A stretch of 64,000 bases of DNA from Candidatus Beckwithbacteria bacterium (GTDB lineage Bacteria; Patescibacteriota; Microgenomatia; UBA1400; UBA1449), in contig JAAZOH010000038.1 in NCBI GenBank assembly GCA_012797845.1, forward strand, positions 11,919 through 75,918, read 5' to 3'. Positions within the stretch are counted from its first letter, which is position 1; each line of letters begins with the position of its first letter. The notes under the pieces are model-generated. The model ran no database searches. It was given only the letters and a program-made list of their open reading frames with translations, and had not been told where the DNA came from. Below are positions 8,544 to 57,363 of this stretch, piece after piece. The position numbers and the translations under genes are program-made.

Positions 8544-8996
8544 ATCTTCTCATAAGGTTTTTGTCTAAAGCAGACATCATTTCGATGTCTGAATTGTCGT
8601 GCCATCATTTCCAATACCTGTTTAGGAAGCAAACACCGCAACCATTGTCCAATATGTTTATGGTCTAGACATCTCGATCTTACTATTCCTGGTGATAGAA
8701 AGTCTCGTTGTGGCTCAAAAATGAAACCAATAGGATTAGTATTTAAACATATTACCTATAATCCATTTACTGATAAGACAAGTGGTGAACTGATGATAGT
8801 ACATCTATGTCTAAACTGTGACAAAATCTCGACAAATAGAATTGCCGGAGATGATAATGCTCAAAGTATTATTCAACTACTAGATGAGCCAAAATCGCTA
8901 GATCCTACTTTAATTCATAGATTACATTGTTCAAACCTTACCCCACTTACCCGTCAAGATGAGCAACAAGTCTTGGCTTGTTTATTTGGTTATTGA
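8544..8996 (+). CDS. RNHCP domain protein; N-terminal part lacks a canonical start codon
   Basis: First ATG is at 8721. The in-frame upstream translation (no stop back to 8544) reads FRCLNC...ANHCPICLWSRHLD, which matches the RNHCP motif, but contains no ATG/GTG/TTG. Confidence 0.5.
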
Positions 8997-9055
8997 GGTT
9001 TTTTTATTGATTAATAAACTCAATATTATTTACAATTTTATTGTAAAATAGCTCT

Positions 9056-10849: not shown

Positions 10850-10946
10850 CTATTTTATTTTAACATGGCCACCTTTAGAAACTGTTTAATATAAAGTATC
10901 AGGAGAGTATTTAGAAAAATATTACAGTACTTATTAAACTCAAAAT

Positions 10947-11750
10947 TTATTTTAATCTTCTGAACATTGCATATACCCGACCATGATCTTTGGAAAATGT
11001 TAAAGTGATTGCATAATTATTTTCTTCCCACCTTAAGCAGTTGTTTTCATCAATACTAAAACTTAAGTTGTCTGCATACTTTTCTTTATAGTCTTGGATA
11101 AATTTATCCATATTTGCTTTATCTACCGTCCAATATTGAGTATATTCAATCTCTCCGCCATTTTGATTGAGTTTACCGTAACTATTTTCATGTTCCTGCC
11201 AGCTAGGATCAATTTCGATTATATTGGGATAATCAGCATAATATTTGTTAGTTTTAGTAAATTCTTTTTCTGGTACATAGACTTGTAAATAAGAAGTGCC
11301 ATCACCGTAATCAGATACTGAAACAATATATGATCCAATAGTCCCCTCTACCCTAGAATCGCTTGAAGTGTCTTCATTTGCTTCGTTCATTAAAGATCGG
11401 TAATAGTTAAGAAGCTCAATCTGTTCAGCTGCCGAAGCAAAAACCACATTGTAATAGTTTTTTTGAGTGGGTAAAAAAGTTTCTATATTTACAGGATCAT
11501 CATTGACGAAATATTTAATTGATTCAATTCTCTTGCTTTTATATAAGGGAACTAAATTTTGGGGATAACCATCCAATAAACTAGTCATAAAATCATCAGA
11601 TTTATTAGCCGATATTTGTTTGGAAGTATTTTGAGTTTGAGTTTTTTGATCAAAATTGTTTTTTGAATAAGGATGTGTGTTTAAAAATATTAAAGTTCCT
11701 ACTCCAAGGATTAATAAAAATACTATGACAATAATAAATTTTGATTTCAT
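10947..11750 (-). CDS. hypothetical secreted protein
   Basis: N-terminal signal/TM. A fragment homologous to its 3' end lies at 22395-22535. Confidence 0.45.
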   Translation of the reverse strand: MKSKFIIVIVFLLILGVGTLIFLNTHPYSKNNFDQKTQTQNTSKQISANKSDDFMTSLLDGYPQNLVPLYKSKRIESIKYFVNDDPVNIETFLPTQKNYYNVVFASAAEQIELLNYYRSLMNEANEDTSSDSRVEGTIGSYIVSVSDYGDGTSYLQVYVPEKEFTKTNKYYADYPNIIEIDPSWQEHENSYGKLNQNGGEIEYTQYWTVDKANMDKFIQDYKEKYADNLSFSIDENNCLRWEENNYAITLTFSKDHGRVYAMFRRLK

Positions 11751-18278: not shown

Positions 18279-18477
18279 AGTATTTATGACCTTTGATCAG
18301 CTCATGCTTTTATTGTTATTGTTCCTATGCAAAAACTCTTCATTGTCTTCTCTTAATATCGACCTGTTCTCGAGTTATTAAGTTTTAGATTGTCTGTGAA
18401 AATAATAATATTTTTAGAGATATTTTCATTAATTAACAAGCTCAATATTATTTATTATTATATTGTAAAATAGCCTT

Positions 18478-19137
18478 GTGAATTTTTTCCTAAAAGGCTT
18501 TCTATTTTTACTATTAGGTTCTTTTCTCTCAGTTTTAGTATTTATCTTACTAAATAATAATATTTTCAGTAAAACCTTTGTTTTTGAAGGCAATAAGCAG
18601 CAATATCAGCCAACAAACTTTTCTTTGGAAGATGCTCCAGTAGAATCGCTGCGAGGGACTATTGCCACTAGAAGCGGAGAGATTTTGTGGCAATCCAGAG
18701 TTGCGACAGAGTCTTCAACATTAGTTGATGACATACAGTTTCAGCAGGGAGAAATGGTAGAAACCAAGAAAAATGGGACAATTGAAGTCAAATTTACCGA
18801 TGCCGCACAGGTTGATATATTTGAAAATACTAAGGTTGAAATAGTCCAAACCTTACCGGTCAATTTGGTTTTTAACCAGTTCAAAGGCAAAGCTCAATAT
18901 AAAAATTTAGGAGTAGCTCCAGTTTCAGTCAGGTCTATGAATCTGTTGGTAAATTTAGTTGAAGGTTTAATGGACATCGATGTGGACGATCAAACTGGAG
19001 AAATCACTGTAACTTTAGATGAAGGACAAGCCAAAGTAGCGTATAACAGTGCAGAGTTTGAAAGTCAGATTTGGGATTTGGAAACAGGAGATATATTTAT
19101 CTATGACAGCAATGAAAGACAAGGTTTTTTTGAGTAA
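18478..19137 (+). CDS. membrane-anchored FecR-like domain protein (copy 2)
   Basis: Paralog of 9056-9715; GTG start. Confidence 0.55.
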   Translation: MNFFLKGFLFLLLGSFLSVLVFILLNNNIFSKTFVFEGNKQQYQPTNFSLEDAPVESLRGTIATRSGEILWQSRVATESSTLVDDIQFQQGEMVETKKNGTIEVKFTDAAQVDIFENTKVEIVQTLPVNLVFNQFKGKAQYKNLGVAPVSVRSMNLLVNLVEGLMDIDVDDQTGEITVTLDEGQAKVAYNSAEFESQIWDLETGDIFIYDSNERQGFFE

Positions 19138-20271
19138 TTACTTATAATTTTTAACCGGTTCTAAAATAGTATTTCCTTCATAGCCAAGGGCCCAGAAGGC
19201 CATACCACCCAGCTTATATTTTTCAACAAGATCAATTTTTTCTTGGATAGCTTGAGCATCCGGATAAAAAATTTGGTGATAGGTTTTATATGCTTGGTCA
19301 TAATAAATAAGGTATGATTCTTGGGAATTAGCTTCTATCTGGGCACTACAAGTGGCGCAACTGGCCAAAAACTCCTCTACCCTTTCATTACTAGCTGTGA
19401 TGCCTGAACTAGGAATGGTGGCTGATCTAGGATAGTCAGTTAGGGTTTCCCATTCATAACCATATAAAGGAATGCCAAGGATAATTTTATTTTTGGGGAT
19501 AACTTCTAGCGCTTTTTGGATACCAGTTTCAACATCAAACTCACTATCAATTCCAACTCCACCTACTGGGGCTACGGCGCCACTTACTTGTGAGCCAGGG
19601 TAATGATAATCATAAGTCATGAGGACAATATAATCGACATACGGTTCTACTGTTTCAAGATTGATCAGCCTACTTTTGATTAAATCTGTAGGGCTGGCAT
19701 CAATAGTTAGGGTTGTATTAATCCGACTTTTAAACTCTTTGACAAAGGCAGTGAAATTTAATCGAGCCGATTCTGAAGCATAAAAAACATTTTCAATATC
19801 AAGATTTAGATCAGTAAATCCATACTGTTTCATAATTGGATTAATTTCAGAAGCTAAAGTTGCAGCATGAGAAGCTGGCTCGGAAACTAATTCGTTAATA
19901 ACGTCCGGATCACCGCTAAAAATTAAAAGGGAGTTTTGTAGATTTTTGGAAGGAGTAAATTTACCGGAATTTAGAGCATGCCAACCCGGCTCAGCTTCAC
20001 CGGGATTAGTATATTTTTGAATACTACCATCAGAATTAACAGTTAATCCAAAATAAGTAATATTGGTCAAATACTCTCTATAATCTTTGTCAGTTTTATC
20101 AAGGAGCCAGTATGGTAGAAAACCAATAATATGCTGGGTGTTTTGTTTTTGAAGAGGTGAAAGAATAACTGATTGAGGATTTTTATCAACGAGATAATTG
20201 ACTAAAAAGAAAGTAATGGCAAATCCTACAATAGTTATAAAGGTAAAGATCAGGATGTTTTTTATATTCAC
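19138..20271 (-). CDS. glycoside hydrolase family 18-like protein (copy 2)
   Basis: Paralog of 9716-10849 with the same GH18 motifs. Confidence 0.6.
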   Translation of the reverse strand: MNIKNILIFTFITIVGFAITFFLVNYLVDKNPQSVILSPLQKQNTQHIIGFLPYWLLDKTDKDYREYLTNITYFGLTVNSDGSIQKYTNPGEAEPGWHALNSGKFTPSKNLQNSLLIFSGDPDVINELVSEPASHAATLASEINPIMKQYGFTDLNLDIENVFYASESARLNFTAFVKEFKSRINTTLTIDASPTDLIKSRLINLETVEPYVDYIVLMTYDYHYPGSQVSGAVAPVGGVGIDSEFDVETGIQKALEVIPKNKIILGIPLYGYEWETLTDYPRSATIPSSGITASNERVEEFLASCATCSAQIEANSQESYLIYYDQAYKTYHQIFYPDAQAIQEKIDLVEKYKLGGMAFWALGYEGNTILEPVKNYK

Positions 20272-20616
20272 CCACTCATTTTAACATGGCCTTTTTAAAA
20301 AGATATTAAATTTGGAACTTTTAAAGTTAAACATTAAAAACCCTTTTTGAGATATATGAAAATTATTCTTATGAAACAAATGCCGCAAATTCTAATGAGC
20401 AAAAAGGCCAGGGGGATTAAACTTTGTTTTAATAAGAATAGCTGGTTATAGCGATTATAACTAGAAAAATGGAAATTATAACTTTATGTAAAGATAATAA
20501 CGATATCTTATAAAGACTAAGAAGCCAATAATTTTTGGTTTAAAAAACTAACCCTAAAAATACAAATTCGGATGTAGCTACTTATTTAAGAATGGATAAA
20601 AATTCAGCTGCCATTT

Positions 20617-22170
20617 TTATTTAATATCTTTTCTAATTGTTAGAAAAATACTAATGATGATGATAAAGGAAATTATATAACCTAAAATACCAAAAATAGA
20701 AAAACCACTAATTAAAGGTGGTAAATTGCTTCTAATAATAAGTGATGAAGCAACAATAGCCCCAGTAGCAAGAATACCACTAGTTAATCTGCTGCTAGCT
20801 TTATTAATCGTTTGATTTAGATCTTCTAAACCTTCGTGATCAAGTTTGATTTCATATTTCCCCTTTATGATTTTTTGTAAAAGAAGCAGAAGATCATTGG
20901 GAAAAGACTTCATAACCCAAAGGTTTTCTTTTAAAAATTGATTTAAATCACTTATTATTTTGGCAGGCTGAAACTGTTTGCTTAACATTTTTTGAGCATA
21001 AGGGATCATGTTAGCTGTAGGATTAAATTGGGGATCAATTTGATTGCCGACGCCTTCTAAAATAATCAGGCAACGTATAACTAAAAGCATGCTCGATGGA
21101 AGTCTGATTTGATAGTGATAAACAAGGGTAATAAATTTATTAAGAATTTCTGAAATGTTGACGTTTTGCAAATCAGTGCCGTAGTAGCGGTTGAAAATAT
21201 CATCCAGATCCTCTTTAAAATTATCAGTCTTGCAATCATCTGGAACCATACCTTCGTTGATAAATAAAGAAATGATGCTGTTAATATTTCTGTCTGAAAT
21301 GGCAATCAAAAGATTGGTTAAAAAATCCTTAACTTCTGTGTTCAAAAATCCCACCATGCCAGCATCAATAAAACAGACAACATCATCTTTCATGATAATC
21401 AAGTTGCCTTTATGAGGATCAGCGTGGAAAAAGCCGTCCTCAAAAATCTGTTTATATACAGCGGCAATGCCCCGCTCTGCTACTAAGTTTCGGTTATGTG
21501 TAGAATCTTCTTTAAGGATAGAATCAATCTTGGCTCCATAAATATACTCCAGAGTTAAAACATAGCGGTTGGAATATTCGCGATAGACTTTGGGAAAGTA
21601 AATTTCGAGAATATCACTAAAATTCCTCCGGAAATGATCAAAATTATCAGCTTCTAACCTAAAGTCAATTTCTTTTTCAATTGACTTTTCAAATTCAGAA
21701 ACTAAATGAACTAGTTCATAGCGTTTTAATTCAGGGATATTTTTTTCAGCCAACAAAGCTAATAAATGCAGCAACTCAATATCTTTACGGATATTTTTTT
21801 CCAAATTAGGCCGTTGGATTTTCACAGCGACTTTTTCTCCTGTTGATAGCTCTGCTAAGTGTACTTGGGCAATTGAAGCTGAGGCTAAAGGCTCCTGACT
21901 AAAATTTGTAAATACTTCAGAAAGTGGTTTCTTAAAAGTCTTTTTAACAATTTTTCCAACTTGGCTAAAACTAAAAGGCTCAACTTTATCCTGCAATTTT
22001 TCCAATTCATGAATAACATTGCGAGGAAGTAGGTCCGGATGGCAACTGAGAGTTTGTCCGAATTTAATATAAGTAGGGCCTAAATCTTGAAAAATACACT
22101 TAATCTTTTGACCTACAGTCAAATGAGTAACTTTTTTCTTATTACCGACAATGAATTTAGGCAAATGCAA
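20617..22170 (-). CDS. ABC1/UbiB-family protein kinase
   Basis: LGPTYIKFGQTLSCHPDLLP and SASIAQVHLAEL...KVAVKIQRP motifs. TTG start; an in-frame N-terminal extension is interrupted by TAA at 22183-22185. Confidence 0.65.
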   Translation of the reverse strand: MHLPKFIVGNKKKVTHLTVGQKIKCIFQDLGPTYIKFGQTLSCHPDLLPRNVIHELEKLQDKVEPFSFSQVGKIVKKTFKKPLSEVFTNFSQEPLASASIAQVHLAELSTGEKVAVKIQRPNLEKNIRKDIELLHLLALLAEKNIPELKRYELVHLVSEFEKSIEKEIDFRLEADNFDHFRRNFSDILEIYFPKVYREYSNRYVLTLEYIYGAKIDSILKEDSTHNRNLVAERGIAAVYKQIFEDGFFHADPHKGNLIIMKDDVVCFIDAGMVGFLNTEVKDFLTNLLIAISDRNINSIISLFINEGMVPDDCKTDNFKEDLDDIFNRYYGTDLQNVNISEILNKFITLVYHYQIRLPSSMLLVIRCLIILEGVGNQIDPQFNPTANMIPYAQKMLSKQFQPAKIISDLNQFLKENLWVMKSFPNDLLLLLQKIIKGKYEIKLDHEGLEDLNQTINKASSRLTSGILATGAIVASSLIIRSNLPPLISGFSIFGILGYIISFIIIISIFLTIRKDIK

Positions 22171-22394: not shown

Positions 22395-22535
22395 GACCTT
22401 CTGATCATGACATATACTCGGCCATGATCTTTGGCAAAAGAAAGAGAGATATCGTATCCTGCTTCGGTCCAATGCAAACCGCCTAACTCATCAGTACTAA
22501 AATTATCTTTATCACTATACTTTTTTGATAGCTTT
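22395..22535 (-). pseudogene. 3'-terminal remnant of a paralog of the 10947-11750 gene
   Basis: Nucleotide similarity to 10950-11090. Encodes ...SFAKDHGRVYVMIRR versus ...TFSKDHGRVYAMFRR. Confidence 0.5.
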
Positions 22536-34206: not shown

Positions 34207-35229
34207 TTATTTTAGTACGTAGTAGCTTGACTTTGTACTTCCCTTTCTTTCTATTAACCCTTTTTCCACCAGACCACTTAATAAGTTATGAGCTTGTTGT
34301 CTCGAAACTTGTAACTGTCCAGCGATTTCTGTTGAAGTAGTTTCTGGATATTTCATCATAATATCCAAAACTGTCCGTTCTTTAGTGCTTGGTCGTTGAG
34401 CTATGTGTAGTGTTTGCAATGAAGTTTGAGCTTTAGCTAAAGCACTTTGAAGTGAGTACTTAACTCCATCGCTAAAATATTCGAGCCACTGAGTTTTGTC
34501 ACCATCATCAGCACTGTGCAGCATGTCGGAATACTGGTTTCGATCAATATCATAGTAATCATCCAAAATAAAATACCTATTGATTCGATAGCCGGCTTTT
34601 ATAAATAGTAAGGCAGTTAGCATCCGGCAAATCCGACCATTTCCATCTAAAAATGGGTGAATATAAACAAAATGATGATGAAAAATCCCAGCTTTGACTA
34701 CTACTGGTAATTCAGTTTGTTGCTTAGCCCAAGACAATAATTCTTCCAAAGCTTGTCTGATTTCGGTCTTAGCATGATATGGAGGCATATGTTTAATATT
34801 CAACTTTACTTTGCCATTCTCCTCTCTTGTATAACGGCTGACGGCCACTATTTCATTGCGAAGCCGGCCAGCTCCTTCTTCAAAATGAGCAAATAATTCC
34901 TGATGTAAATCAGTTACTAGCTTGGCACTGAAAGGTTTTTGAGCATAACTATCCAATTTTTCCAACATGGCAAAATAGTTAGCAATCTCTTTTTCATCAC
35001 GATTGCTTGGCATGCGGTCATTAAGAATCAAATTAGTTACCTCAGGTAAGGTCATGGGGTTACCCTCGATCCGGTTGGAAGCATAGGCTGATTCAATCAG
35101 ATTATTACGTTTAAGATTTAATTCCAACTGTTTTGGGAGGCGTAAAGCCTCAACTTGACCATACAGCCGCTCACAGGTAGCAACATTATTAAAAAGATGA
35201 TTAGTTAGGGAATATTGGGGTTGAAACAT
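34207..35229 (-). CDS. Fic family protein with C-terminal wHTH
   Basis: HPFLDGNGRICR Fic active-site motif. Confidence 0.75.
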   Translation of the reverse strand: MFQPQYSLTNHLFNNVATCERLYGQVEALRLPKQLELNLKRNNLIESAYASNRIEGNPMTLPEVTNLILNDRMPSNRDEKEIANYFAMLEKLDSYAQKPFSAKLVTDLHQELFAHFEEGAGRLRNEIVAVSRYTREENGKVKLNIKHMPPYHAKTEIRQALEELLSWAKQQTELPVVVKAGIFHHHFVYIHPFLDGNGRICRMLTALLFIKAGYRINRYFILDDYYDIDRNQYSDMLHSADDGDKTQWLEYFSDGVKYSLQSALAKAQTSLQTLHIAQRPSTKERTVLDIMMKYPETTSTEIAGQLQVSRQQAHNLLSGLVEKGLIERKGSTKSSYYVLK

Positions 35230-35239
35230 GGCAGTATAT

Positions 35240-35315
35240 GTAAAATAATTGTAAATATAATTGTAAAGCTAATTGTCAGTTTGTCAAGTATTAATTGTAA
35301 AGGTATTTGTCAATA
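35240..35315. repeat. tandem array of ~6 (t)aattgtMaa repeats with 12-13 bp period
   Basis: aattgtaaa / aattgtcag / ttgtcaag / atttgtcaa reiterated between the fic and SDR start codons. Confidence 0.6.
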
Positions 35316-35384
35316 TAAAAGTAAATAGTCTTGCGATTTTGTAATTTATCCTCTATAACAAAACTAGTAAATAAAAGGAGATAT

Positions 35385-36089
35385 ATGAGCCTAAAAAACA
35401 AAACTATTCTTATTTCTGGAGGCAATTCTGGTTTGGGGTTTGAGATTAGTAAACAATTAATTAGATTGGGTTCTAAAGTGATTATTCTAGGTAAAAATCA
35501 GAATAATCTTAACCTTGCAGTTAAAAAACTTAAATCCCCATTTGCCTCTTCGATGGTTTGCGACCTAACTAATGCTGAAGAAATTGAAAAATTAAACATT
35601 GGCAAGCTCGATATTTTAATCAACTGTGCCGGAGTTATCAAATATTCACCACTAGAAAAACACAGTATTACTGATATCAAAAACATTATTGATACTAATC
35701 TGATAGGAACTATTTTACTGACTAGGCAAGTTTTGCCAATTTTGAAAAAACAAAATTCAGGGATTATTGTCAATATTTCCTCGACTTCCGGTTTAATGAC
35801 AGGTGGCCATGCTTATGAAAGTGTATATATTGCCAGTAAATTTGGCGTCACTGGCTTTACGGAAAGTTTAAAAAAAGAAATGGCAGAGGAAGGTAAAAAT
35901 ATTAAAGTCTTAGGTTTTTATCCCGGTGGTATGAATACCCCACTTTTTACTAAATCTGGTGAAGATAAAGACACCACAAATTTTATGGATCCAGCTGAAA
36001 TTGCTAAAATTTTAGTTTTTATGTTGCAACAGCCTGATGCTGTATCTATGGATCATATTGTGGTTAATCGAAATAAAACTGCTAAGTAA
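35385..36089 (+). CDS. SDR family oxidoreductase
   Basis: ISGGNSGLGFEI Rossmann motif and YxxxK. Start set at the ATG with AAAAGGAG RBS. Confidence 0.65.
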   Translation: MSLKNKTILISGGNSGLGFEISKQLIRLGSKVIILGKNQNNLNLAVKKLKSPFASSMVCDLTNAEEIEKLNIGKLDILINCAGVIKYSPLEKHSITDIKNIIDTNLIGTILLTRQVLPILKKQNSGIIVNISSTSGLMTGGHAYESVYIASKFGVTGFTESLKKEMAEEGKNIKVLGFYPGGMNTPLFTKSGEDKDTTNFMDPAEIAKILVFMLQQPDAVSMDHIVVNRNKTAK

Positions 36090-36192
36090 ATATTTGCTCT
36101 CAATATTTCAATAGTTTAGTAATTAGTTTTATAGGCTTAAAAATTAATCTAAAATGCTATAATGCTTATATTTATTTATATATAAGGATATT

Positions 36193-36783
36193 ATGGCTGA
36201 ACGAGTTGCAGTTTTAGATTATGGCAATCTTGATTTTATTGATAGAGCTAAAGCTAGTAGTAATGTAGAGCTTACACGACTAATAGTTGGATTATTTGTA
36301 ACGACAACTGATGAAAATGGTGAATTTTGTGTGGTTTTACAAAGAAGATCAAAACATAAAAAAGAATTTCCAGATTGTTTAACTTTTTTAGTTTCTGGCC
36401 ATGTTGATGAACAAGACATGTATCATGTATTTGCTTTACCTCAAACTTTACTTGAAGCTTTGACTGATACCGCTTTATTAAGAGAATCATTTGAAGAAAT
36501 AGGTATTACAATAGAAAAATTTGATGAAACAAGATGTTTTGATAGTGAGATAAGAGAAAATAATATACCAGCCAAGCAAATGCATATTAAAACAATTTGT
36601 ATAGATAGGTCTGTTTTAGGAGAACTACGTTACAATCCTGAAGAAGTTGACGGCATAGAGGTTGTTCCACTCAAAAAAATTATAGAGCAAATAAAACTAT
36701 CACCAGAAGAAAGGGAAGCTGGTTTTGAATTCACCACTCCGTTTGAAGAATTTATGAGATTAGTTTTTAATAAGCTTTTATAG
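36193..36783 (+). CDS. hypothetical protein, weak Nudix-like motif
   Basis: EALTDTALLRESFEEIGI approximates the Nudix box. Confidence 0.35.
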   Translation: MAERVAVLDYGNLDFIDRAKASSNVELTRLIVGLFVTTTDENGEFCVVLQRRSKHKKEFPDCLTFLVSGHVDEQDMYHVFALPQTLLEALTDTALLRESFEEIGITIEKFDETRCFDSEIRENNIPAKQMHIKTICIDRSVLGELRYNPEEVDGIEVVPLKKIIEQIKLSPEEREAGFEFTTPFEEFMRLVFNKLL

Positions 36784-36825
36784 TCTGTTCCCGCTTTGGG
36801 GCCAACTGTAAACATAAAAGCTAAA
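36781..36825. repeat. imperfect direct repeat (copy A) of the purA 3' end
   Basis: tagtctgttcccgctttgg plus similar downstream sequence; matches 38476-38520. Confidence 0.7.
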
Positions 36826-36885
36826 TATTTATGGTTAAAAATCATACTATTTGCTACTATTAATGCAAATATAAAATTATGATTT

Positions 36886-38457
36886 ATGACTTTCAAAAAA
36901 TATAAAATATTTAATAATAATTTTTTTTGGTTTTTTTTGTTATTTACTTTTTTTATCTTAATTCAAATAGACTTTTATAATCATGGAGCTTTATCAGATG
37001 ATTTAGCTGAATACATACAAAACCCTCTTAGAATAATTAATGGACAAATTCCATACAAAGATTTTTGGCTTTTATTTCCTCCTGGAGAAGTTTATGTTCC
37101 AGCACTAGTATATAAAATTTTTGGATTACAAATAAAAAGTATTTTATTATTTAATGTTTTTATAAAAAGTCTTGTTTCATCAGCAGTTTTTATATTAATG
37201 AAGTTAATTTGTAAAAAAAATATTTATGCAGCAGTTTCGGCGATTCTGTTTTTTTTCATGGGAGATTTACAAATTTACATGTTTTTTTTACTTTTTTCAT
37301 TTTTATTTATTTATGAATATCTTTTTACAGAAAATAGATTTTGGTTATTTATGGCTGGTTCTTTTGTAGGGGTAGCTTTTAATTTTAGATTTTTTTTAAC
37401 AGGTGCTTTTGCTTTTTCCGTAATTACATTATTAGTTCTAAAAATAGGGAAAATTAAATTATTATTGCAAAATATTTTGACATTTATTTTAGGAACATTT
37501 CTTATTTTTACTTTTAACTTTTGGTTATATAAAAAATTCTTTTTTGCAATGATACAGGAAACAGTTTTAAAAGGACTAAAACATGGGACAACGATGGATA
37601 TAAATTATATTGATCAAATTTTTATTAGTTTAGATATTTTAAAAAAATCTTTCTCAACTCTTTTAAACCAATTTGGCATTATGAACAGTTGGTCATTCAT
37701 GGTATTTTTTTTCGAATTTATTCTGACCGTTTGTCTTTATGCTTTGCCATTTTTGGCAATTTTAATAGCAATTTATTTATTATTTTTTAAAAAAAGAAAT
37801 TTTATTAAAAAAGAAATTATTTATTTATTATTAATTTGGGGAACACTAGTTTTTTTAAAAAGTATTCGTAAACCAGACCCTGAACACCTAGTATATGCAA
37901 ATTCTATTTTTTTACTTCTTTTTATTTACATTTTTTCAAAACTTAAAACAAGCAAACTTAAATCATTAATGAATATAGTTATTATCATTTTTTTAATGCG
38001 TTTATATGTTTTTGCTTTTCACTACTATTTTAATTTTAGAATTCCTCAATATAACGTAACTGCAAAGTTTGGGACATTACAGGTTAGCAACGAATATGAG
38101 GCAAAAAAATTGCAATCGGTGATTAGATTTATTGAGCAAAACAGTTCTAGGAATGATTATATTTTAAACACACTGTTTTATTCACCTCCATTTTACGCAA
38201 TGACAGGAAGAAAAAATGCTACTTATTATGATTCTTTAATTGATCTTTTTACAAATAAAAATTTTCAAAAAGAAAAAATGATTTGTAATCAAATTTTAAA
38301 CAGTAATACTAAATTAGTAATACATAATCCTAAATGGAAATTTGGAGATAGAGGTGAGTTCGACCAACAGTTACCAATATTGCAAAAATGTATAGATCAA
38401 AATTTTGTTCTTAAAGAAAAAAATGATGAATATTGGCTTTATAAAAAAATGAGTTAA
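36886..38457 (+). CDS. GT-C-like polytopic membrane protein (putative glycosyltransferase), very AT-rich
   Basis: PYKDFWLLFPPGE first-loop motif typical of PMT/ArnT-like GT-C enzymes. Extreme Phe/Ile/Lys bias. Confidence 0.45.
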   Translation: MTFKKYKIFNNNFFWFFLLFTFFILIQIDFYNHGALSDDLAEYIQNPLRIINGQIPYKDFWLLFPPGEVYVPALVYKIFGLQIKSILLFNVFIKSLVSSAVFILMKLICKKNIYAAVSAILFFFMGDLQIYMFFLLFSFLFIYEYLFTENRFWLFMAGSFVGVAFNFRFFLTGAFAFSVITLLVLKIGKIKLLLQNILTFILGTFLIFTFNFWLYKKFFFAMIQETVLKGLKHGTTMDINYIDQIFISLDILKKSFSTLLNQFGIMNSWSFMVFFFEFILTVCLYALPFLAILIAIYLLFFKKRNFIKKEIIYLLLIWGTLVFLKSIRKPDPEHLVYANSIFLLLFIYIFSKLKTSKLKSLMNIVIIIFLMRLYVFAFHYYFNFRIPQYNVTAKFGTLQVSNEYEAKKLQSVIRFIEQNSSRNDYILNTLFYSPPFYAMTGRKNATYYDSLIDLFTNKNFQKEKMICNQILNSNTKLVIHNPKWKFGDRGEFDQQLPILQKCIDQNFVLKEKNDEYWLYKKMS

Positions 38458-38461
38458 TTAA

Positions 38462-39907
38462 TTAGTAACATTTTATAGTCTGTTCCCGCTTTGGACCGAC
38501 TGTCAGCATAAACGGCTTAGCTTGCAAACAGGCGCTAAGAAAACTGATATACTGCTTAGTTTCTTTGGGCAAATCATCATAACAACGGACTTGACTGACG
38601 GTTTTGCCATCCCATGATGGCAATTCAAGATACTCTGGCTTGACGGTATCTAAATAGCTTTGGTCAGGCCGGTAAGCAACTTCCTTACCATTTTGTTTGT
38701 AGGCAATGCAAACTTTAATGGGTATATTTTGATAACAAATGTCTAAGTGAGTCATATTTACATATTCAATTCCTCCTACTCTAAACAAAAAAGATAACAT
38801 CGGCAAATCAATATAGGCAATATCCCGCGGGCGTTTTGTTGTTGCACCATACTCATTAGCATCCTCTCTAATTTTTGCTGCCAACTTGGTTTTTATTAGG
38901 GTGGGTAAAACACGGGAACCAACGCTAGAGGTATAGGTGGTTTTAATGGTAGCGGTTTTAATAGCTATCTGATTTGGATCAACAACCCCATCAGTTGAAG
39001 ATAAAATGCCATCAAGACCACAGTTGGAAACTGTTACGTCTGGATAAACACCCCAACGTTTATCAAGACCTAAGGCTTGAGCCTTTTCAAAAATAATCGG
39101 AGTTTTGTTTTCCCATCGGTTTTTAATTAAATCATAAACAGAAGTAGCAAATGGTTTTATTTGATTTCTGGTTTTTTCTAACCGGTTTAGGAAAATTTTT
39201 AAACTGCCAACTTTTACCGCTTCTCCCGTCAATCTCGGCACTTCAATTTTGGCAAGATCAAAATTCATACCCTTGATCCATTCCTGATACAGTTTGAAAT
39301 GATTAGTTAATTTATCTTTCCAGTTACGAGCCATTAAATCTCTGATTCGTAAAGCATGGCGAAAAATCACGTCAGCATAGGCTGGAGAAATGCCCCTACC
39401 AGTGGCACCAAGATAGCCGTCGGCACGCTGCTTTAAAACTGCATCAAAAGCACGGTGAGTATCTAGGCACAAAAAAGCCATTTCATCAATTGAAAGACGT
39501 GCCGGCAAATTTTTACTATTTGTAGCTTTTTTCACAAGTTCAATTTCTGTGATCAAATCCTCTGGATGAAGCACCATTTCTTTACCAAGCATAATATGGC
39601 AGCCTTTTTGTAAAATACCTGACCCTAGCTGATGTAAAGCAATTCTGACATTACCAACTTCTACGGTATGGCCGGCATTAGCACCGCCGTTATCGCGATA
39701 CACAACGACCTCTTTGTGTTTTTTCAAAAAATTAGCAACCAACTCATCAACAATTCTCCCCTTCCCTTCATCTCCAATGGCACCGCCACCAATAGCTATA
39801 GAATTAGGTCGATTTTTTAAAAAAAGATTTGACGTTTGTTTTGGCAGTTTTTTTACATATTTATTTTGTTTATAGACCTGTCGATATATGTTTAAAAAAT
39901 CAGACAT
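38462..39907 (-). CDS. purA: adenylosuccinate synthetase
   Basis: GDEGKGR P-loop, GATGRGISPAYAD, HDKDLA-like segments. Has a ~30-aa N-terminal extension. Confidence 0.8.
   Translation of the reverse strand: MSDFLNIYRQVYKQNKYVKKLPKQTSNLFLKNRPNSIAIGGGAIGDEGKGRIVDELVANFLKKHKEVVVYRDNGGANAGHTVEVGNVRIALHQLGSGILQKGCHIMLGKEMVLHPEDLITEIELVKKATNSKNLPARLSIDEMAFLCLDTHRAFDAVLKQRADGYLGATGRGISPAYADVIFRHALRIRDLMARNWKDKLTNHFKLYQEWIKGMNFDLAKIEVPRLTGEAVKVGSLKIFLNRLEKTRNQIKPFATSVYDLIKNRWENKTPIIFEKAQALGLDKRWGVYPDVTVSNCGLDGILSSTDGVVDPNQIAIKTATIKTTYTSSVGSRVLPTLIKTKLAAKIREDANEYGATTKRPRDIAYIDLPMLSFLFRVGGIEYVNMTHLDICYQNIPIKVCIAYKQNGKEVAYRPDQSYLDTVKPEYLELPSWDGKTVSQVRCYDDLPKETKQYISFLSACLQAKPFMLTVGPKREQTIKCY
38476..38520. 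repeat. imperfect direct repeat (copy B) = in-frame 3' end of purA
   Basis: Matches 36781-36825. Confidence 0.7.
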
Positions 39908-41288
39908 AGTTGCCTCTCTTTTTCATGTTATTTATAAAAATTGATACCTGTTTTGATTTCTTTCTAGTTAGTAAAACTGACAAACCCAAGTAAGTTTCGG
40001 GTTTTAATTTAGCTAGTTTAGGATCACAATCTTTGGTTAGTTGTTGCCAATCTTTAGCAGTTATTTTTTTCTGTTTTGCAATCCCTGCTACTCTTTCATA
40101 GGCTTTGCTATCACCAGTAGTACGAGCTAGAGTCTGCCAAGCTTCAGCTAAGATATTCCAGTTTTGATTGAGGGCTTGCTGCATAATACTTTCATTAACA
40201 CTAATCGAATCTAGGCCTTTTTGCAGACTTTGGTAAGCCAGTAAGCAGTAGCTAAAAGCTGAACCAACATTTCGCCAAACAGTGCTTTCAGATAAATCCC
40301 GTTGTAAACGGCTAATGGGCAATTTACGAATAAAGGTTTCAAAAAAGCCATTAGCTAATACTAAATTACCTTCACTATTTTCAAATTCAATTGGGTTGAC
40401 TTTTTGAGGCATAGTTGAGGAACCAACATATTTTTCTTTACCTTTTTGCATAAGCCAGTCATCACTGATATAGCGCCACAGGTCCTGATTTAGGTCAAGC
40501 AAGACTCCATTAATACGCTCGAACAAACTAAATAGTTCTAAAAAATCATCAGGAAAATTGATCTGACTAGTTAGCTCATTACAGTCAAAGTCTAACTCCT
40601 TGCAAAAGTCTTGAGAAAATTGAGGCCAATTGATTTTGGGATAGGTAAAAGCTAAGGCATGATAGGCGCCAATGGCTCCATTTAGTTTGCCAACAAATTT
40701 AAACCGAGTGAGTTTGGTAAGTAAAGGTTGAAGCCTTAGGGCAAAAAGTATCAATTCTTTGCCAAAGGTAGTTGGTATAGCTGGCTGACCATGAGTGCGA
40801 GCTAGCATTGGAATTTGAACATATCGCAAAGCCAAAGTATTTAAGTTTTCTAAAACTTGGAGCAATTGAGGAATTAAAACCTGCTTTAAGCTATCTTTGG
40901 TCATTGACCTATAAGCCAAATTATTGACATCATCGGAAGTGATGCCAAAATGCAAAAAAGAAATAATATCTGACAATGAAGATTTTTGTAATTTTTTTTG
41001 TAAAAAATATTCAACGGCTTTAACATCATGATGAGTTTCTTCCTCAAGCTTTTTAACCTGCCGACAATAAGTAATATTGGGCTGACTTAGAGTATCTAAT
41101 AAGGACTGTTCTGAAGAAGTTAAAGGTCTAATGACTTGGTATTTTGATAATAATTTCAAATAAGCAAGCTCTATTTTAATGCGGTAGGTAATTAGAGCTG
41201 ATTCACTAAAATACTTTGAAAGCTGGGAAGTTTTGCTTTGGTACCGGCCGTCAAGTGGAGATATAGCTTGTAAATTATCGGCTATCAT
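39900..41288 (-). CDS. purB: adenylosuccinate lyase
   Basis: SPLDGRY N-terminus and GSSTMPQKVNP fumarate-lyase signature. Start trimmed to MIADNLQ to avoid overlap with msrA. Confidence 0.8.
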   Translation of the reverse strand: MIADNLQAISPLDGRYQSKTSQLSKYFSESALITYRIKIELAYLKLLSKYQVIRPLTSSEQSLLDTLSQPNITYCRQVKKLEEETHHDVKAVEYFLQKKLQKSSLSDIISFLHFGITSDDVNNLAYRSMTKDSLKQVLIPQLLQVLENLNTLALRYVQIPMLARTHGQPAIPTTFGKELILFALRLQPLLTKLTRFKFVGKLNGAIGAYHALAFTYPKINWPQFSQDFCKELDFDCNELTSQINFPDDFLELFSLFERINGVLLDLNQDLWRYISDDWLMQKGKEKYVGSSTMPQKVNPIEFENSEGNLVLANGFFETFIRKLPISRLQRDLSESTVWRNVGSAFSYCLLAYQSLQKGLDSISVNESIMQQALNQNWNILAEAWQTLARTTGDSKAYERVAGIAKQKKITAKDWQQLTKDCDPKLAKLKPETYLGLSVLLTRKKSKQVSIFINNMKKRGNYV

Positions 41289-41332
41289 CACAGCTACTAT
41301 ACTAAAAATTTTAGCTTTGGGAAATATTAGAA

Positions 41333-41854
41333 TTATTGATCTAAAAATTTTTGCAACTTTACAATTTTGGGAACAATCACCGCTTTGCAATAAGCTTGAT
41401 CAGGATGCTTTTCAAAGTAGTTGTGATGTTCTGCCTCAGCTCCGTAAAATATTTCTAAAGGTTTGATTTCAGTCACAATAGGCATGGTAAAGTGGGATGC
41501 CTGCTCTTTTTTGGCAGCCTCAGCTAACTCTTTTTGCCTTTGATTAGTCCATAAAATAATAGAACGGTATTGGGGACCGATATCATTACCTTGGCGGTTA
41601 AATGTGGTTGGGTCATGAATTTTCCAGAAAATATCCAAAAGCTGCTGGTAGCTGATTTTTGTAGGATCATATTCCAGTTCCACCACCTCGGTATGGCCGG
41701 TAGTGCCGGTACTAACCAGATCATAACTGGGTTCAGCAATGTTGCCGCCGGCATAACCGGGAGTGACTTTGATAATGCCAGGAACCATTTTAAAAGTTGC
41801 CTCACTGCACCAGAAGCAGCCAGCGCCGAAAACAGCTAGCTCAGTTTTTGCCAT
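41333..41854 (-). CDS. msrA: peptide methionine sulfoxide reductase MsrA
   Basis: GCFWC active-site motif. Confidence 0.85.
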   Translation of the reverse strand: MAKTELAVFGAGCFWCSEATFKMVPGIIKVTPGYAGGNIAEPSYDLVSTGTTGHTEVVELEYDPTKISYQQLLDIFWKIHDPTTFNRQGNDIGPQYRSIILWTNQRQKELAEAAKKEQASHFTMPIVTEIKPLEIFYGAEAEHHNYFEKHPDQAYCKAVIVPKIVKLQKFLDQ

Positions 41855-47452: not shown

Positions 47453-47923
47453 GTGATTTCAAGACAACATCTTCCTAGATACGAATTTACCCAAGAAGGT
47501 TTTGATAAGCTTTTGCTTGAGCAAGAGCAACTGACTCAAAACCGGGTTGGAGCAGTCAAAGATTTAGCTGAGGCTCGGGCTATGGGCGATCTATCAGAAA
47601 ATGGCTACTATAAAGCAGCTCGGGCCAAACTCTCCTCTATTGATTCGCGTTTAGGCCGGCTTAAACTCATGATCAAATATGCTGTGATCTTGGAAAGCAG
47701 CAAATCCGGGGCTGTTGATTTTGGTTGTAAAGTTACAGTGCAAGTTGGTTCCCTAAAGCGAGAATTTCAAATTGTGGGCAAAGAAGAATCAGATCCTTCA
47801 GCTGGGAAAATTTCTGGTCACTCACCGATTGGTCAAGCTTTGATGGGCAAGAAAAAAGGTGAGAAAGTTTTGGTACAAATTCCAGCCGGGGAAGTTGAGT
47901 ATGAGATTTTAGTTGTGGAGTAA
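47453..47923 (+). CDS. greA: transcription elongation factor GreA
   Basis: GDLSENGYYKAAR GreA signature; size 156 aa. Confidence 0.8.
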   Translation: MISRQHLPRYEFTQEGFDKLLLEQEQLTQNRVGAVKDLAEARAMGDLSENGYYKAARAKLSSIDSRLGRLKLMIKYAVILESSKSGAVDFGCKVTVQVGSLKREFQIVGKEESDPSAGKISGHSPIGQALMGKKKGEKVLVQIPAGEVEYEILVVE

Positions 47924-49288
47924 ACAACTAGCACAATCAAAAGCTAATTTGGCTGTTTTTCCTTCAAAATCTAACCCTGTTAATTCATTAATACTCCCAA
48001 TAATCCTCTTTCCATTTACTACAATTCCTAATTCTAAATTATAAGCATGACACATTGTTTGCATGCTTTGCATAAGGTTAATCATTTGTTCTCTTGTAAC
48101 TCCTCTAGGCGTGCGAGTATGTAAATTTAAATCAAGGTTTTGAGCTTCTTTAATAGGATGCCTGAGGGCTTGTGTTGTAAGAGAAATTTCTTGTAAGAAT
48201 CTGTTAAAAGCTGAAGGACGTGCTTGGGCAAAAGTTTTAATATCGGAATATGGTCCTTTTAAAGAATTCCATAAACAATATAGATCCTGCACTCCCAATA
48301 AAAGTATTGTATTCCAACTACTATAATCAATTGCTGTTGTTTGAGCTTCTAAATCATCAATAACATCGAGACATATAGAACAAAACACTTGCCTAATTCC
48401 AGCTTGGGAAAATAATTGAAGTTGTCTTGAAAGTGCTTCTGTAAGACATTCTTGTGTTGTTTGGCCTTGTGTATCAAATATATTATGATCTATATTGAGT
48501 CTTCCTTGATAAAATTTATATATTTTATGCATTAAACCAAGTTGAGCTTGATGAATGGTTGTGTCATTTACTTGTCCACGATTTTTAGCATCTTTGGCTA
48601 GCGAAAGAATATCAAGTTCTTCACCAGTTGATGCTGTTAATTTTCCAGTAATAATTTGTTGAATCAATTCTTGATTTATTCCTATAACACCAATAGCTCC
48701 AATACCCAAAGGATCTAATAATATATTTAGAAAATTACTTTTATCTGGTAATGTATTTCCTATTGGGATGTAAAAATCTGGGTGTCTATCAAAAACCAAC
48801 CAACCAACTTGTCCAAGGTCAACGCCTGCTTGTTCTAAAGTATGGGCTAAGTAAGCATCATGACCATGATTTGAAGTTATAAAACACACACTTCTGTCTG
48901 AATTTGTATCCAAGACATCAGCGTAAAAAGTTGATAAACCTATCTCATTAACATTGGCAGGATAATTTCCACCTATGAGATTAATAGCACTATCTAAACC
49001 GTCTGGGGCTTTTTTAAGACCTTTAACAATTCTAATAATTTGAGATTTATCAAGTTGGGAACATAGATTAGTTTCTTCCAAAACAAGAGTAATCCAGCGT
49101 GAATCTTGTGTTGTGCATTCTTTTCTACATGCCTGAATTAAACCTAGATTTCCTCTAAACAAAGAAGGATTAAATACCTTTATAAGCTCTAATATAGGTA
49201 AAACGTCAGTTGCATCCCCTTCTAATCGAGGAGTAATTATAATTTCAGAATGTGGTCTTAAAGTCTCTCCTAATTCTCTATTTTTCAT
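47909..49288 (-). CDS. hypothetical protein (possible arginase/deacetylase-like fold)
   Basis: VFDRHPDF and CSICLDVIDD resemble ureohydrolase metal-binding motifs. Weak assignment. Confidence 0.3.
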   Translation of the reverse strand: MKNRELGETLRPHSEIIITPRLEGDATDVLPILELIKVFNPSLFRGNLGLIQACRKECTTQDSRWITLVLEETNLCSQLDKSQIIRIVKGLKKAPDGLDSAINLIGGNYPANVNEIGLSTFYADVLDTNSDRSVCFITSNHGHDAYLAHTLEQAGVDLGQVGWLVFDRHPDFYIPIGNTLPDKSNFLNILLDPLGIGAIGVIGINQELIQQIITGKLTASTGEELDILSLAKDAKNRGQVNDTTIHQAQLGLMHKIYKFYQGRLNIDHNIFDTQGQTTQECLTEALSRQLQLFSQAGIRQVFCSICLDVIDDLEAQTTAIDYSSWNTILLLGVQDLYCLWNSLKGPYSDIKTFAQARPSAFNRFLQEISLTTQALRHPIKEAQNLDLNLHTRTPRGVTREQMINLMQSMQTMCHAYNLELGIVVNGKRIIGSINELTGLDFEGKTAKLAFDCASCLLHN

Positions 49289-54677: not shown

Positions 54678-55384
54678 ATACATATCACCAAGAATTATTA
54701 TTAGAAATAAAACAAGAGGCTAAACAAAACCCAGTTTCTTCTAAGCACACAAATAGTTATTCAGGAACAAAAAACTATAGTTACCCCCTATCGAATCAGC
54801 AAAGACGAAATATTGTTAAACGATTTATAAAAAAACATAGCAATATAAGTGTTGAAACAATGATTGAACTACTTAATTCGTTATATGAAAGTAAGTCATA
54901 TGATGAAAAAACTATGGCAGGAATGATTCTTGATACCGTGAAGCATTTGAAATCTCAAATCAAACCTGAATATTTAGATGTATGGCTTAATAATTTAGAA
55001 GGTTGGTCTGAAGTGGATTCATTGTGTCAATCTAAATTTGGTGCAGAAGACTTTTTGACTTATTGGATTGACTGGCAAAAACTGATTAAAAATTTAGCTA
55101 AAAATAATAATATTAATAAACAAAGAGCGTCTTTGGTCTTACTAACTAAGCCAGTTAGAGATTTAAAAAACGAGCAATTCAAATATTTGGCTTTAGAAGT
55201 TGTCAAAAAATTAAAAGATAGACGTGAAATTTTAATTACCAAAGCTATTTCTTGGTTACTTAGGGATATGATTAAAAACTATCGTCAAGAAGTTAAAAAC
55301 TTTTTAATTTTATATAAAGATAGTTTGCCAAAAATTGCAATTAGAGAAACCAATACAAAATTAGCAACTGGGAAGAAAACTTAA
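54659..55384 (+). CDS. DNA alkylation repair (AlkD-like HEAT repeat) protein
   Basis: All-helical. MIELLNSLYESKSYDEKTMAGMIL resembles the DNA_alkylation family. Confidence 0.45.
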   Translation: MVAKLMNTYHQELLLEIKQEAKQNPVSSKHTNSYSGTKNYSYPLSNQQRRNIVKRFIKKHSNISVETMIELLNSLYESKSYDEKTMAGMILDTVKHLKSQIKPEYLDVWLNNLEGWSEVDSLCQSKFGAEDFLTYWIDWQKLIKNLAKNNNINKQRASLVLLTKPVRDLKNEQFKYLALEVVKKLKDRREILITKAISWLLRDMIKNYRQEVKNFLILYKDSLPKIAIRETNTKLATGKKT

Positions 55385-55857
55385 TACTTTTTTATAACTT
55401 CTTCAGTATCACTTATATTGATAATCAAATTATTTTTATCTTGCAGAAATATTTCCAAATCATTAAGCAGGCCTTTGATTTTGATATAATTTTTAGCTTC
55501 CACAGGAGTGACCCATTTATAATCAGAATGTTCAGGTGAAAGTTTAATTTTACTAGTTTTAGTAGTAGCCCAAAAGGTAATGCCAAAAATTTCTCTGTGA
55601 GCAGTTTTTTCGCCCCTATAAAAATGCCAGATTCGTAAAACTTTTTTAAGCTCCAAATCAGTCATACCAGTTTCTTCCAATACCTCTCTTTTTAATGCTT
55701 GTTCAAAACCTTCAAAATGATCAAGACGACCATAACCAAATTCCCACTCATCATTATTGAAATCATGAATTCGTCTAAGGATTAGAATTTTACCAGTTGT
55801 TTTGTGCTCGATAATAGCACCAACTCCGATCATAAAATGTCCGATCTTGTTGATCAT
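55381..55857 (-). CDS. NUDIX hydrolase
   Basis: Nudix box ...REVLEETGM. Confidence 0.65.
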   Translation of the reverse strand: MINKIGHFMIGVGAIIEHKTTGKILILRRIHDFNNDEWEFGYGRLDHFEGFEQALKREVLEETGMTDLELKKVLRIWHFYRGEKTAHREIFGITFWATTKTSKIKLSPEHSDYKWVTPVEAKNYIKIKGLLNDLEIFLQDKNNLIINISDTEEVIKKY

Positions 55858-55866
55858 AGTTTTATA

Positions 55867-57363
55867 TTATAGTTGATAAACTAGAAAGTACTGATTTGGA
55901 TCACCTCTTGGAATCCTCTTAACTTCTGCGACATTCCAAGTTTTGGGGATTTCCTGATTATGGTGGAGTAAAATTAAGGCTTTATTTGTTGATTGAGTTA
56001 TAGATATTGGTAGTTGCTGTGGTAAATCCTTACCAAGTTCAAAAGCTGGTTCAATTTGATAAAGATTAGCTTTGTTTAAATAAAGTGGCAAACCGGAAGA
56101 AAGTAGGGTTTCATTTTCAGTGAAAATTTTGATAGGAATATTTTTATCTAAATAGTTAGTATTGATAAATGTTACTAGCTCATCAAAACCATAACCTGAT
56201 GGCCAGCCTTCCAAATATTGCCAAGCTTCAATTTGAGGCAGATTGGCATGTCTAACATCAAAGAGCAGTTGATAATCTAGGCTTAAATTAGGAATTAAAA
56301 CTAATATTAGTAGGCTAATTTGAAAAAACTTGTTTTTGACATAGTTCAAAAGATGATCAATCCCAATAGCTATTAAGATTGCAAAAGCTACAAAAGTAAA
56401 TAGAAAGTAACGGGGAAAATACATTTTGGCAGTAATGATTTCAAAACTAATTGGCAGTAAAATCCAAGCAAGTAAAATGATTGCAGAAGTGGTTTGCTTT
56501 TTGGCATATAGATAAAAACCAAACAAAAACAAAATAAGCAATGGAACTTGATAATAAGTCAAAAGCCAAAGTAGCGTTGAATACACATTGTTACGCCATA
56601 AGCTTAAAGGCAGTTTGCTAAGTTCTGCAAAAGAAAGTAGGAAGATGCTGTTTTTAGGGCCAATGTTCCAAGTTAATGATGATATATATTGTAAGGCTTG
56701 GATAAAAAAAGCTACAACCAAAACCGTGCTGCTTTGTAAAATCAGCGTTTTTAATTGCGATTTTTTCAACTTTTTGCGATTAGAAATAAATAGTATTACT
56801 ACTGAAAGAAGATAAAGAATGACAAAAAAATAGGCAATTGATTTGGTTAGTAAAGCTATTCCAAGTATGACTCCATTTAGTAAAGCAAATTGCCACTTTT
56901 GAGTTTTAAATTGCTTAAAAGTCCAAAGCAAAATTAAACTGGCCAGAAACATCAAAAAACTATCTCGCATCAGAATCCGGTCATAAAAAAGCGTAAAGGG
57001 GCTGATTAGATATAATAGTGCTGCAAGTAAGCCAATTTTATGATTGCCCAATTCTTTACCTAAAAAATATAAAGTGATCAAGGCTCCTAGACCTGAAAAA
57101 ACAGAAATTAATCTGCCAGCTAGTAAAAAATACTTACTTCCCAACAGCCAACTTATGCTGGTTAGTAAAAAGAAAAACAGTTGTTGGCCATCAGTCAAAG
57201 AAATATCCCAGTACTTAGCTGGATTAGAGATAATTAATCTGGTCCAATTGAGATACAAAGCTTCGTCGTTGAAGATAGGTAAAACTTGGATATTAATAAG
57301 TCGAACTAGAACATACACAAAGCCTAAGGCAATCAAAATCAAACTTTTTTTGTTGATAGTCAT
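55867..57363 (-). CDS. GT-C family membrane glycosyltransferase (ArnT/PMT-like)
   Basis: ~12 TM, 498 aa. Confidence 0.45.
   Translation of the reverse strand: MTINKKSLILIALGFVYVLVRLINIQVLPIFNDEALYLNWTRLIISNPAKYWDISLTDGQQLFFFLLTSISWLLGSKYFLLAGRLISVFSGLGALITLYFLGKELGNHKIGLLAALLYLISPFTLFYDRILMRDSFLMFLASLILLWTFKQFKTQKWQFALLNGVILGIALLTKSIAYFFVILYLLSVVILFISNRKKLKKSQLKTLILQSSTVLVVAFFIQALQYISSLTWNIGPKNSIFLLSFAELSKLPLSLWRNNVYSTLLWLLTYYQVPLLILFLFGFYLYAKKQTTSAIILLAWILLPISFEIITAKMYFPRYFLFTFVAFAILIAIGIDHLLNYVKNKFFQISLLILVLIPNLSLDYQLLFDVRHANLPQIEAWQYLEGWPSGYGFDELVTFINTNYLDKNIPIKIFTENETLLSSGLPLYLNKANLYQIEPAFELGKDLPQQLPISITQSTNKALILLHHNQEIPKTWNVAEVKRIPRGDPNQYFLVYQL

Follow-up and report, generated by a model that had tools for sequence, protein, structure and literature searches.

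In genomic islands, integrative and conjugative elements (ICEs) or prophages, tyrosine recombinases direct integration at the 3' ends of tRNA genes or of protein genes (guaA, rpsI, rplL), and the resulting elements span 10-500 kb and carry their own integrase next to one of the attachment (att) sites. Cis-mobilizable elements (CIMEs) are decayed elements that lack integration genes but have both an attL and an attR site, frequently located at a target gene's 3' end (PMC5704250). Here we describe a locus of similar appearance in a 64-kb window, by which we mean the whole stretch of DNA analyzed (GC 34.6%), of an 81.5-kb contig belonging to a metagenome-assembled genome (MAG) of Candidatus Beckwithbacteria, a member of the candidate phyla radiation (CPR; Patescibacteria). 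At the 3' end of the adenylosuccinate synthetase gene purA (NMC36318.1), a single gene for a GT-C-fold membrane glycosyltransferase (NMC36317.1; hereafter the cargo) lies between two copies of a direct repeat. One copy is the functional end of purA, and the other is a frameshifted "ghost" of it that overlaps the end of a Nudix hydrolase gene (NMC36316.1). We propose, at a probability a little short of even, that this is the scar of the recombinational insertion of one accessory gene at the purA 3' end by a Campbell-type crossover.

The window has exactly two copies of the sequence TTTTATAGTCTGTTCCCGCTTTGG, of 24 nucleotides (nt), one at 36776-36799 and the other at 38471-38494; none of 100 dinucleotide shuffles contained two matches, and no exact match would be expected by chance. 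Around this perfect core BLAST joins 36754-36818 with 38449-38512 over 65 nt at 80% identity (E 2.8e-9). The significance of the extensions was assessed by anchoring the alignment at the core and comparing it with composition-matched random pairs. On the side of the purA body, 19 nt with four substitutions and one indel extend the match significantly (p ~0.006), and beyond the purA stop codon 14 of 22 nt are identical, which is marginal (p ~0.026). An earlier inspection of the letters alone (the sequence-only reading) had reported imperfect direct repeats at these sites; on alignment the repeat resolves into the exact core and a ~65-nt imperfect extension, and the coordinates first given were 2 nt off at the left.

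The right, attR-like copy (38449-38512) comprises the functional 3' end of purA and 13 nt downstream of it, including the stop codon of the cargo gene. Its minus strand translates as AKPFMLTVGPKREQTIKCY followed by the stop, the true in-frame end of purA, and its core codes for the purA residues P-K-R-E-Q-T-I-K. On the minus strand of the left, attL-like copy (36754-36818), FMFTVGPK is read in one frame and PKREQTIKAY followed by a stop in another, the frame change being due to one extra C in a run of C residues after the codons for GP. The relic extends from ~36823 down to a TAA at 36769-36767, which lies at the same offset as the purA stop codon, and spans approximately the last 19 codons of purA; its right arm reads GGCCAACTGTAAAC. 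In the purA clade the C-termini are almost universally ..GPKR(E/D/N)QTI(K/R)x(Y/W/F), a consensus which the window's purA (..GPKREQTIKCY) fits. Because the stop codon is at the homologous position and the C-terminus is typical of the family, the ghost is no chance repeat but a true tail of purA. The open reading frame (ORF) of the Nudix gene (36193-36783, plus strand) runs into it and takes from it K-L-L and a stop, the TAG at 36781-36783 lying within the core. Translation thus confirms both that the second copy is the in-frame end of purA and that the first is a frame-shifted ghost which provides the stop codon of the neighboring ORF, as the sequence-only reading had it.

The two copies do not differ evenly along their length. 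The 24 nt of the core are free of differences, whereas the 41 flanking positions have 13, distributed over both sides, and a run of at least 24 identical sites among 65 with 13 scattered differences has a probability of ~0.015; these statistics rest on 65 nt and are suggestive only, since the region is short. At third positions all eight synonymous sites of the core are identical, and three flanking codons differ synonymously. An identical core with diverged arms is the expected product of a Campbell-type crossover, which is why we favor that reading, and the left core (36776-36799) would be the putative crossover region.

In the state preceding the event, the Nudix gene and purA would have been convergent and would have overlapped by 17 nt. 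The incoming DNA, most simply a circle, would have carried the GT-C gene and a short purA-tail-like segment, and a single crossover within the 24 bp of perfect identity would have generated hybrid attL and attR sites. The present purA would then consist of the host body, the core and an element-supplied tail of three codons and a stop (..KCY), while the ghost would consist of the host left arm (the original ..KAY tail with its stop, and the Nudix end), the core and the right arm of the element, where a frameshift in non-coding DNA would be harmless. The crossover may have been made by a site-specific recombinase which acted in trans or has since been lost, in which case the block would be a CIME-type islet with att flanks and no integrase, or by RecA acting on the minimal homologous patch. 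We infer the direction of events, the circular intermediate and the enzyme involved.

In total GC the block stands apart. GC content is 22.8% at 36826-38472 and 23.0% over the 1.67 kb between the cores, with 32.4% and 37.9% in the 2-kb flanks, so that the block is indeed far more AT-rich than its surroundings, as had been noticed by eye. Among the 62 ORFs of at least 120 amino acids in the window, the cargo has the lowest GC content (0.231; mean 0.352, sd 0.039), with 0.160 at third codon positions (GC3). The deficit was partitioned with the window's own codon table. Amino acid composition alone predicts a GC content of 0.277, the lowest in the window (z -2.7), and accounts for ~60% of the deficit, and synonymous codon choice removes a further 0.046 (z -2.0). 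By comparison, a native GT-C gene of similar hydrophobicity (55867-57363, PMT_2) has a GC content of 0.325 and a GC3 of 0.283, and genes of the cargo family are 2-8 GC points lower than their flanks in three other genomes versus 12 points lower here. Because these genes deviate less, the outlier status of the cargo is real and only partly intrinsic to its protein family. At the purA stop the GC content shifts from 0.17 (38420-38479) to 0.53 (38480-38539); purA itself is of native composition, and its 3' third has no donor-like AT bias. This sharp return implies that the incoming purA-like segment was short, consistent with an att site rather than a long homologous anchor.

The cargo gene (36886-38457, plus strand) is the sole gene between the repeat copies, and both it and the Nudix gene converge on purA, which is on the minus strand. 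Its 523-amino acid product gave no Pfam match at E<=0.01 and no NCBIfam match, and a PDB profile search by sequence returned nothing useful, so that a fold search was needed for its identification. Its 41 homologs, the closest 37% identical, belong to Beckwithbacteria, to further CPR bacteria and to one Ignavibacteria MAG, and 23 of the 37 that were aligned match PF13231 (PMT_2; best E 4e-9). An AlphaFold2 model based upon this family alignment (predicted local distance difference test score, pLDDT, 90.2; predicted template modeling score, pTM, 0.90) has ~13-16 helices and, after them, a small C-terminal domain of the alpha/beta type. The top seven Foldseek matches are all GT-C enzymes, namely DPY19, STT3 and PglB (E 7e-6 to 4e-5, TM 0.46-0.58), with PMT4 and several ALG enzymes at lower ranks; among these PDB matches DPY19 is a C-mannosyltransferase and STT3 a subunit of the oligosaccharyltransferase complex. 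The model thus identifies the cargo as a GT-C-fold membrane glycosyltransferase, distantly PMT_2/ArnT-like, and together with the PMT_2 matches of its homologs bears out the earlier description of one GT-C-like membrane protein in the block. The gene is intact, and every family-invariant residue is present. Across 37 homologs, conservation of the acidic residues D39 and E42 (in DDLAEY) is 90% or more; their placement in the first extracytoplasmic loop and their catalytic role are putative.

Elsewhere the homologs of the cargo are found in glycan-synthesis clusters with genes for GT2 and GT4 glycosyltransferases, GtrA, GLF (UDP-galactopyranose mutase) and methyltransferases, and at none of three loci examined does one lie beside purA. 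The cargo is not a paralog of the window's PMT_2 gene at 55867-57363, and a PMT_2 gene found near purA at one of the related loci (L004) is unrelated to it. Its position outside its usual context, its larger GC gap and its lack of paralogy to the native PMT_2 gene all support insertion. No relatives of the cargo were present in IMG/VR, among the PLSDB plasmids or among the INPHARED phages. Reading of the 67-nt plus-strand spacer between the ghost and the start codon (36819-36885) revealed no convincing promoter or Shine-Dalgarno sequence, and the promoter and terminator counts in a scan equaled those of shuffles. The Nudix gene has both an extended -10 element (TGCTATAAT, 36155-36163) and an AAGGA ribosome-binding site (36184-36188). 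Since a recognizable promoter and Shine-Dalgarno of its own were not seen for the cargo, its expression may depend upon read-through from the Nudix gene.

The ghost also has a structure of its own. As plus-strand RNA, 36760-36824 folds into a long hairpin (-16.6 kcal/mol, z -2.3) which only 6 of 200 shuffles equal, and no such fold is formed by the homologous functional purA copy (z +0.6). An extra G and G-to-A changes specific to the ghost strengthen the stem. We conjecture that the hairpin, which starts at the Nudix stop codon, could stabilize or terminate the Nudix transcript, perhaps having been exapted as a 3' structure. The ghost codes for the C-terminus and stop of the Nudix protein and may have been retained for this reason, and it may also act as the 3' hairpin of that gene.

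Both junctions are real and not an assembly artefact. A 2044-nt Logan contig from an independent assembly (L001, run ERR1876141, k=31) is 100% identical to 36764-38807, and at each copy its 31-mers run from the left arm through the core into the right arm; the 24-nt repeat is shorter than k and therefore cannot produce such spanning 31-mers falsely. A second Logan contig (L012, corresponding to 35724-36793) overlaps the first by exactly 30 nt (k-1), with the break inside the ghost, and the assembly graph therefore branches there (36763/36794). A single-nucleotide polymorphism or a structural variant in the population may be the cause of the branch.

Several observations weigh against the Campbell-type model. 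Pfam was run on 55 of the 62 ORFs, and none of these matched a recombinase, integrase, transposase or relaxase, which agrees with the earlier remark that no integrase accompanies the block. Neither an empty site, nor a circular junction, nor a second instance of the element was found in any collection searched, and a collection of ~15 billion proteins has none of the hypothetical empty-site purA alleles ending in ..KAY. Downstream of the two closest purA relatives no ghost of the purA tail is seen, so that nothing points to purA as a recurrent target. Within the purA tail no peptide is more conserved than the one encoded by the core, and this conservation could account in part for the identity of the core. 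Finally, the Nudix gene, which lies outside the repeats, has the most AT-biased synonymous codon choice of the window (z -2.26) and the lowest GC3 (0.142), and being as AT-biased as the cargo it shows that composition does not cleanly delimit one element. The picture of an AT-rich block bracketed by repeats therefore holds for total GC, which is low between the copies, and not for the synonymous AT bias, since the Nudix gene left of the ghost has this bias as well. Two origins had been offered at the outset. Recombination at a gene 3' end, whether site-specific or Campbell-type, is plausible and remains the best reading, since the contrast between core and arms fits it, with the reservation that neither a recombinase nor an empty site was found. 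An insertion that duplicated its target is not upheld: the repeat is ~65 nt long and imperfect outside the core, and neither terminal inverted repeats nor a transposase is present.

Other searches around the locus were also negative. The window has no tRNA genes, the block holds a single ORF (the GT-C gene), and no inverted repeats pair its ends. The closest purA is 65% identical and the closest GT-C homolog 37%, and the purA, GT-C and Nudix proteins are each singletons at 90% identity among ~15 billion proteins. At the nearest purA loci (L002-L005) the purB-purA pair is kept (L002) or the neighbors are others (L004), and the downstream genes differ. A 21-mer of the core matched one metagenome contig (L008) and one genome contig (L009), both unrelated and attributable to chance; viral contigs gave no 21-mer matches, and one 18-mer match in an unrelated ORF was in the wrong frame (L014). 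The genome match, at 1785-1810 of L009 (JAQIJD010000006.1, a Sphingomonas fennica MAG), is a 26-nt exact match to 38474-38499 of the purA tail, in an intergenic position in a 65%-GC genome. It was judged to be chance, with ~0.3 21-mer matches expected across 596 Gb, though its five extra bases are somewhat unlikely. Among the papers listed by a literature search on integration at purA none was relevant, and to our knowledge purA has not been described as a target. There is no evidence of current mobility of the block.

How else might the locus have arisen? It is unlikely, though an explanation to be taken seriously, that an illegitimate insertion or small tandem duplication at the Nudix/purA junction copied ~65 bp in situ and that the spare copy then drifted. 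No recombinase is needed, the substitutions and the frameshift in a homopolymer run are those of a neutral pseudo-tail, and the genome keeps another gene-tail relic at 22397-22519. Drift would not, however, be expected to leave the differences clustered as they are (0 of 24 central versus 13 of 41 flanking nt, p ~0.015); the ~20-35% divergence of the arms implies an old event, yet the cargo is still the strongest compositional outlier; and a 65-bp staggered duplication fits no known insertion mechanism. Homology-facilitated illegitimate recombination or segment replacement, which we hold to be improbable, would have involved a donor segment with the GT-C gene converging on purA; homologous recombination in purA or purB on the right and an illegitimate join on the left, in the recipient purA tail, would have stranded ~19 codons as the ghost. 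The native GC content from the purA stop onward, with no donor-like AT bias in the 3' third of purA, speaks against it, as does the fact that none of the three GT-C homolog loci adjoins purA; the perfect identity of 24 nt is left unexplained as well, even if a true purA-tail ghost with its stop would be accounted for with no integrase. That the whole repeat is an assembly artefact or a chance similarity is scarcely credible. MAG contigs can be chimeric at repeats, and the break between the two Logan contigs in the ghost does show some branching of the graph, but the 31-mers spanning both junctions exceed the repeat in length, none of the 100 shuffles had two matches, and the ghost translates as a purA tail with its stop.

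The peculiarities of the Nudix gene raise two further explanations. The ghost may have come with that gene, a donor Nudix gene and an overlapping purA tail having been inserted upstream of a resident GT-C gene, so that the repeat would reflect the shared ancestry of two purA tails; we consider this quite improbable. The Nudix gene is the most AT-biased at synonymous sites and a near-orphan, its homolog lies in a mevalonate cluster, and its product is ~6 residues short and ends inside the ghost, all of which would fit. The donor, however, must share 24 identical nt and yet differ at 20-35% of the adjacent nt, there is no mechanistic reason for landing 1.7 kb from the recipient purA tail, and the GT-C gene deviates more in total GC and lies outside the context usual for its family. 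Very improbable is a successive accretion, in which the purA 3' end received first the Nudix gene and later the GT-C gene, the tail being regenerated each time. Under it an older att relic should lie left of the Nudix gene, and an uncertain third partial copy (TAGTTTAGTAATTAGTTTTATAGGCT, left arm and start of the core) does lie at 36111-36137, exactly between the SDR gene of normal composition and the AT-biased Nudix gene; the accretion in tandem of CIMEs and of integrative and mobilizable elements (IMEs) at the end of a target gene is documented (PMC5704250). Local alignment gave this copy a score of 25, versus a null 95th percentile of 23 and maximum of 31 (200-nt windows), which is not significant after four windows were tested, and neither blastn-short nor tblastn revealed a third att copy. 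The same reading also has against it that no recombinase was found in the window ORFs scanned and that the closest purA relatives have no ghosts. In a more general form, to which we likewise attach little probability, the purA 3' end would in this CPR lineage be a reusable landing pad at which a recombinase acting in trans captured the IDI-like Nudix gene and then the GT-C gene, regenerating the tail and pushing the old one outward. This would amount, with as little assurance, to an integron-like stacking of genes without attC, in bacteria about whose mobile elements little is known; compatible with it are the ghost, the weak third copy and the status of both genes as compositional and contextual outliers. 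The insertion of the GT-C gene alone, through a Campbell-type crossover, is still the reading which we prefer.

The 196-amino acid Nudix protein (Pfam NUDIX, E 1.2e-9) has weak IPP-isomerase-like NCBIfam matches and belongs to a very rare subfamily, with 9 representatives among 1.84 billion proteins in an exhaustive HMMER scan. A word-indexed search produced one homolog, of 41% identity, and the C-terminus of the window's protein is ~6 residues shorter than that of its closest homolog. A homolog in another genome (P0165; 4001-4648 of L015; GCA_014729085.1, WJKM01000009.1) sits in a mevalonate-pathway cluster with GHMP kinases, an MVD-like decarboxylase and a second Nudix protein, and not near purA. 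This suggests an isoprenoid-related role for the Nudix protein and possibly a functional tie to a GT-C enzyme dependent on polyprenol. Another Nudix gene (158 amino acids) directly follows the second GT-C/PMT_2 gene (498 amino acids) on the minus strand at 55381-57363. Nudix and GT-C genes are thus adjacent twice in the window; the pairs are not paralogous to each other, and the Nudix gene at 36193-36783 is not a paralog of the other one.

Among the other genes at the locus, purA (38462-39907, minus strand, 481 amino acids) matches Adenylsucc_synt over residues 41-478 (E 1.5e-93) and forms an operon with purB (39900-41390, minus strand), after which come msrA and msrB. On the other side, a Fic/HTH gene (34207-35229, minus strand) and the SDR gene (35331-36089, plus strand) precede the Nudix gene. 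In the intergenic region between the Fic and SDR genes a 27-nt motif (TAATTGTAAA..) occurs at 35246-35272 and 35292-35318, the copies being 78% identical and 46 nt apart; the pair overlaps the best promoter-like matches on both strands and may be an operator pair. Elsewhere in the window, a 1.9-kb segment with a 219-amino acid ORF and a GH18 gene is duplicated (8995-10870 versus 18417-20291, 83% nt identity). The next gene after copy 1 is a 267-amino acid ORF (10947-11750), of which copy 2 keeps only the last 41 codons (22397-22519; 56% amino acid identity, E 2e-10). An ABC1-kinase gene (20617-22170) lies between the GH18 gene and this relic, so that the window has a second gene-tail relic beside an interposed gene. 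Three ORFs without a Pfam match (47909-49288, 6941-7663 and 2833-3642) have a synonymous AT bias of z ~-1.8 to -2.0 and may be other recent acquisitions or fast-evolving genes.

If the Campbell-type reading is correct, the locus would be a clean, datable case of an ultra-small CPR genome gaining a cell-surface glycosylation gene with an essential purine gene preserved, and of a stranded gene tail recycled as the C-terminus and stop codon of a neighboring gene. In that case purA would join the protein genes known as integration targets, with a hint of trans-acting recombination in Patescibacteria. Its value is that of a documented single locus and not of a new principle.

Compared with known systems, the locus resembles an insertion sequence or transposon in that direct repeats bracket an inserted segment. 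The target-site duplications of transposons are exact and of 2-14 nt, whereas the purA repeat is ~65 nt and imperfect, and terminal inverted repeats and a transposase are lacking. An integron cassette would have an attC hairpin at its 3' end and an IntI integrase with attI nearby; here no integrase was found, and the sole notable hairpin, of which the window has no second example, is the ghost, situated upstream of the cargo. As in homology-facilitated illegitimate recombination, foreign DNA lies beside a homologous anchor with no mobile-element machinery. In naturally transformable bacteria, however, that process normally uses an anchor of ~150 bp or more and leaves no direct duplication with an identical core, and no donor-like segment is visible in the window's purA. 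The likeness to tyrosine-recombinase islands is closer: the element brings a replacement 3' end, the gene survives, and the displaced tail is found on the far side; the purA block differs in being 1.67 kb long and in having no integrase in the window. From CIMEs the locus differs in its cargo of only one gene (1.67 kb), in its CPR host and in that there is no cognate integrase in the 64 kb and no related ICE or IME is known. It shares with them direct repeats that flank the block, one being the functional 3' end of the housekeeping gene purA, an identical core with diverged arms, a target gene that is intact (full length versus Pfam), a compositionally foreign cargo, and a block free of integration and transfer genes. 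We regard it as a further example of a type of footprint already known, found in an unusual host with purA as the target.

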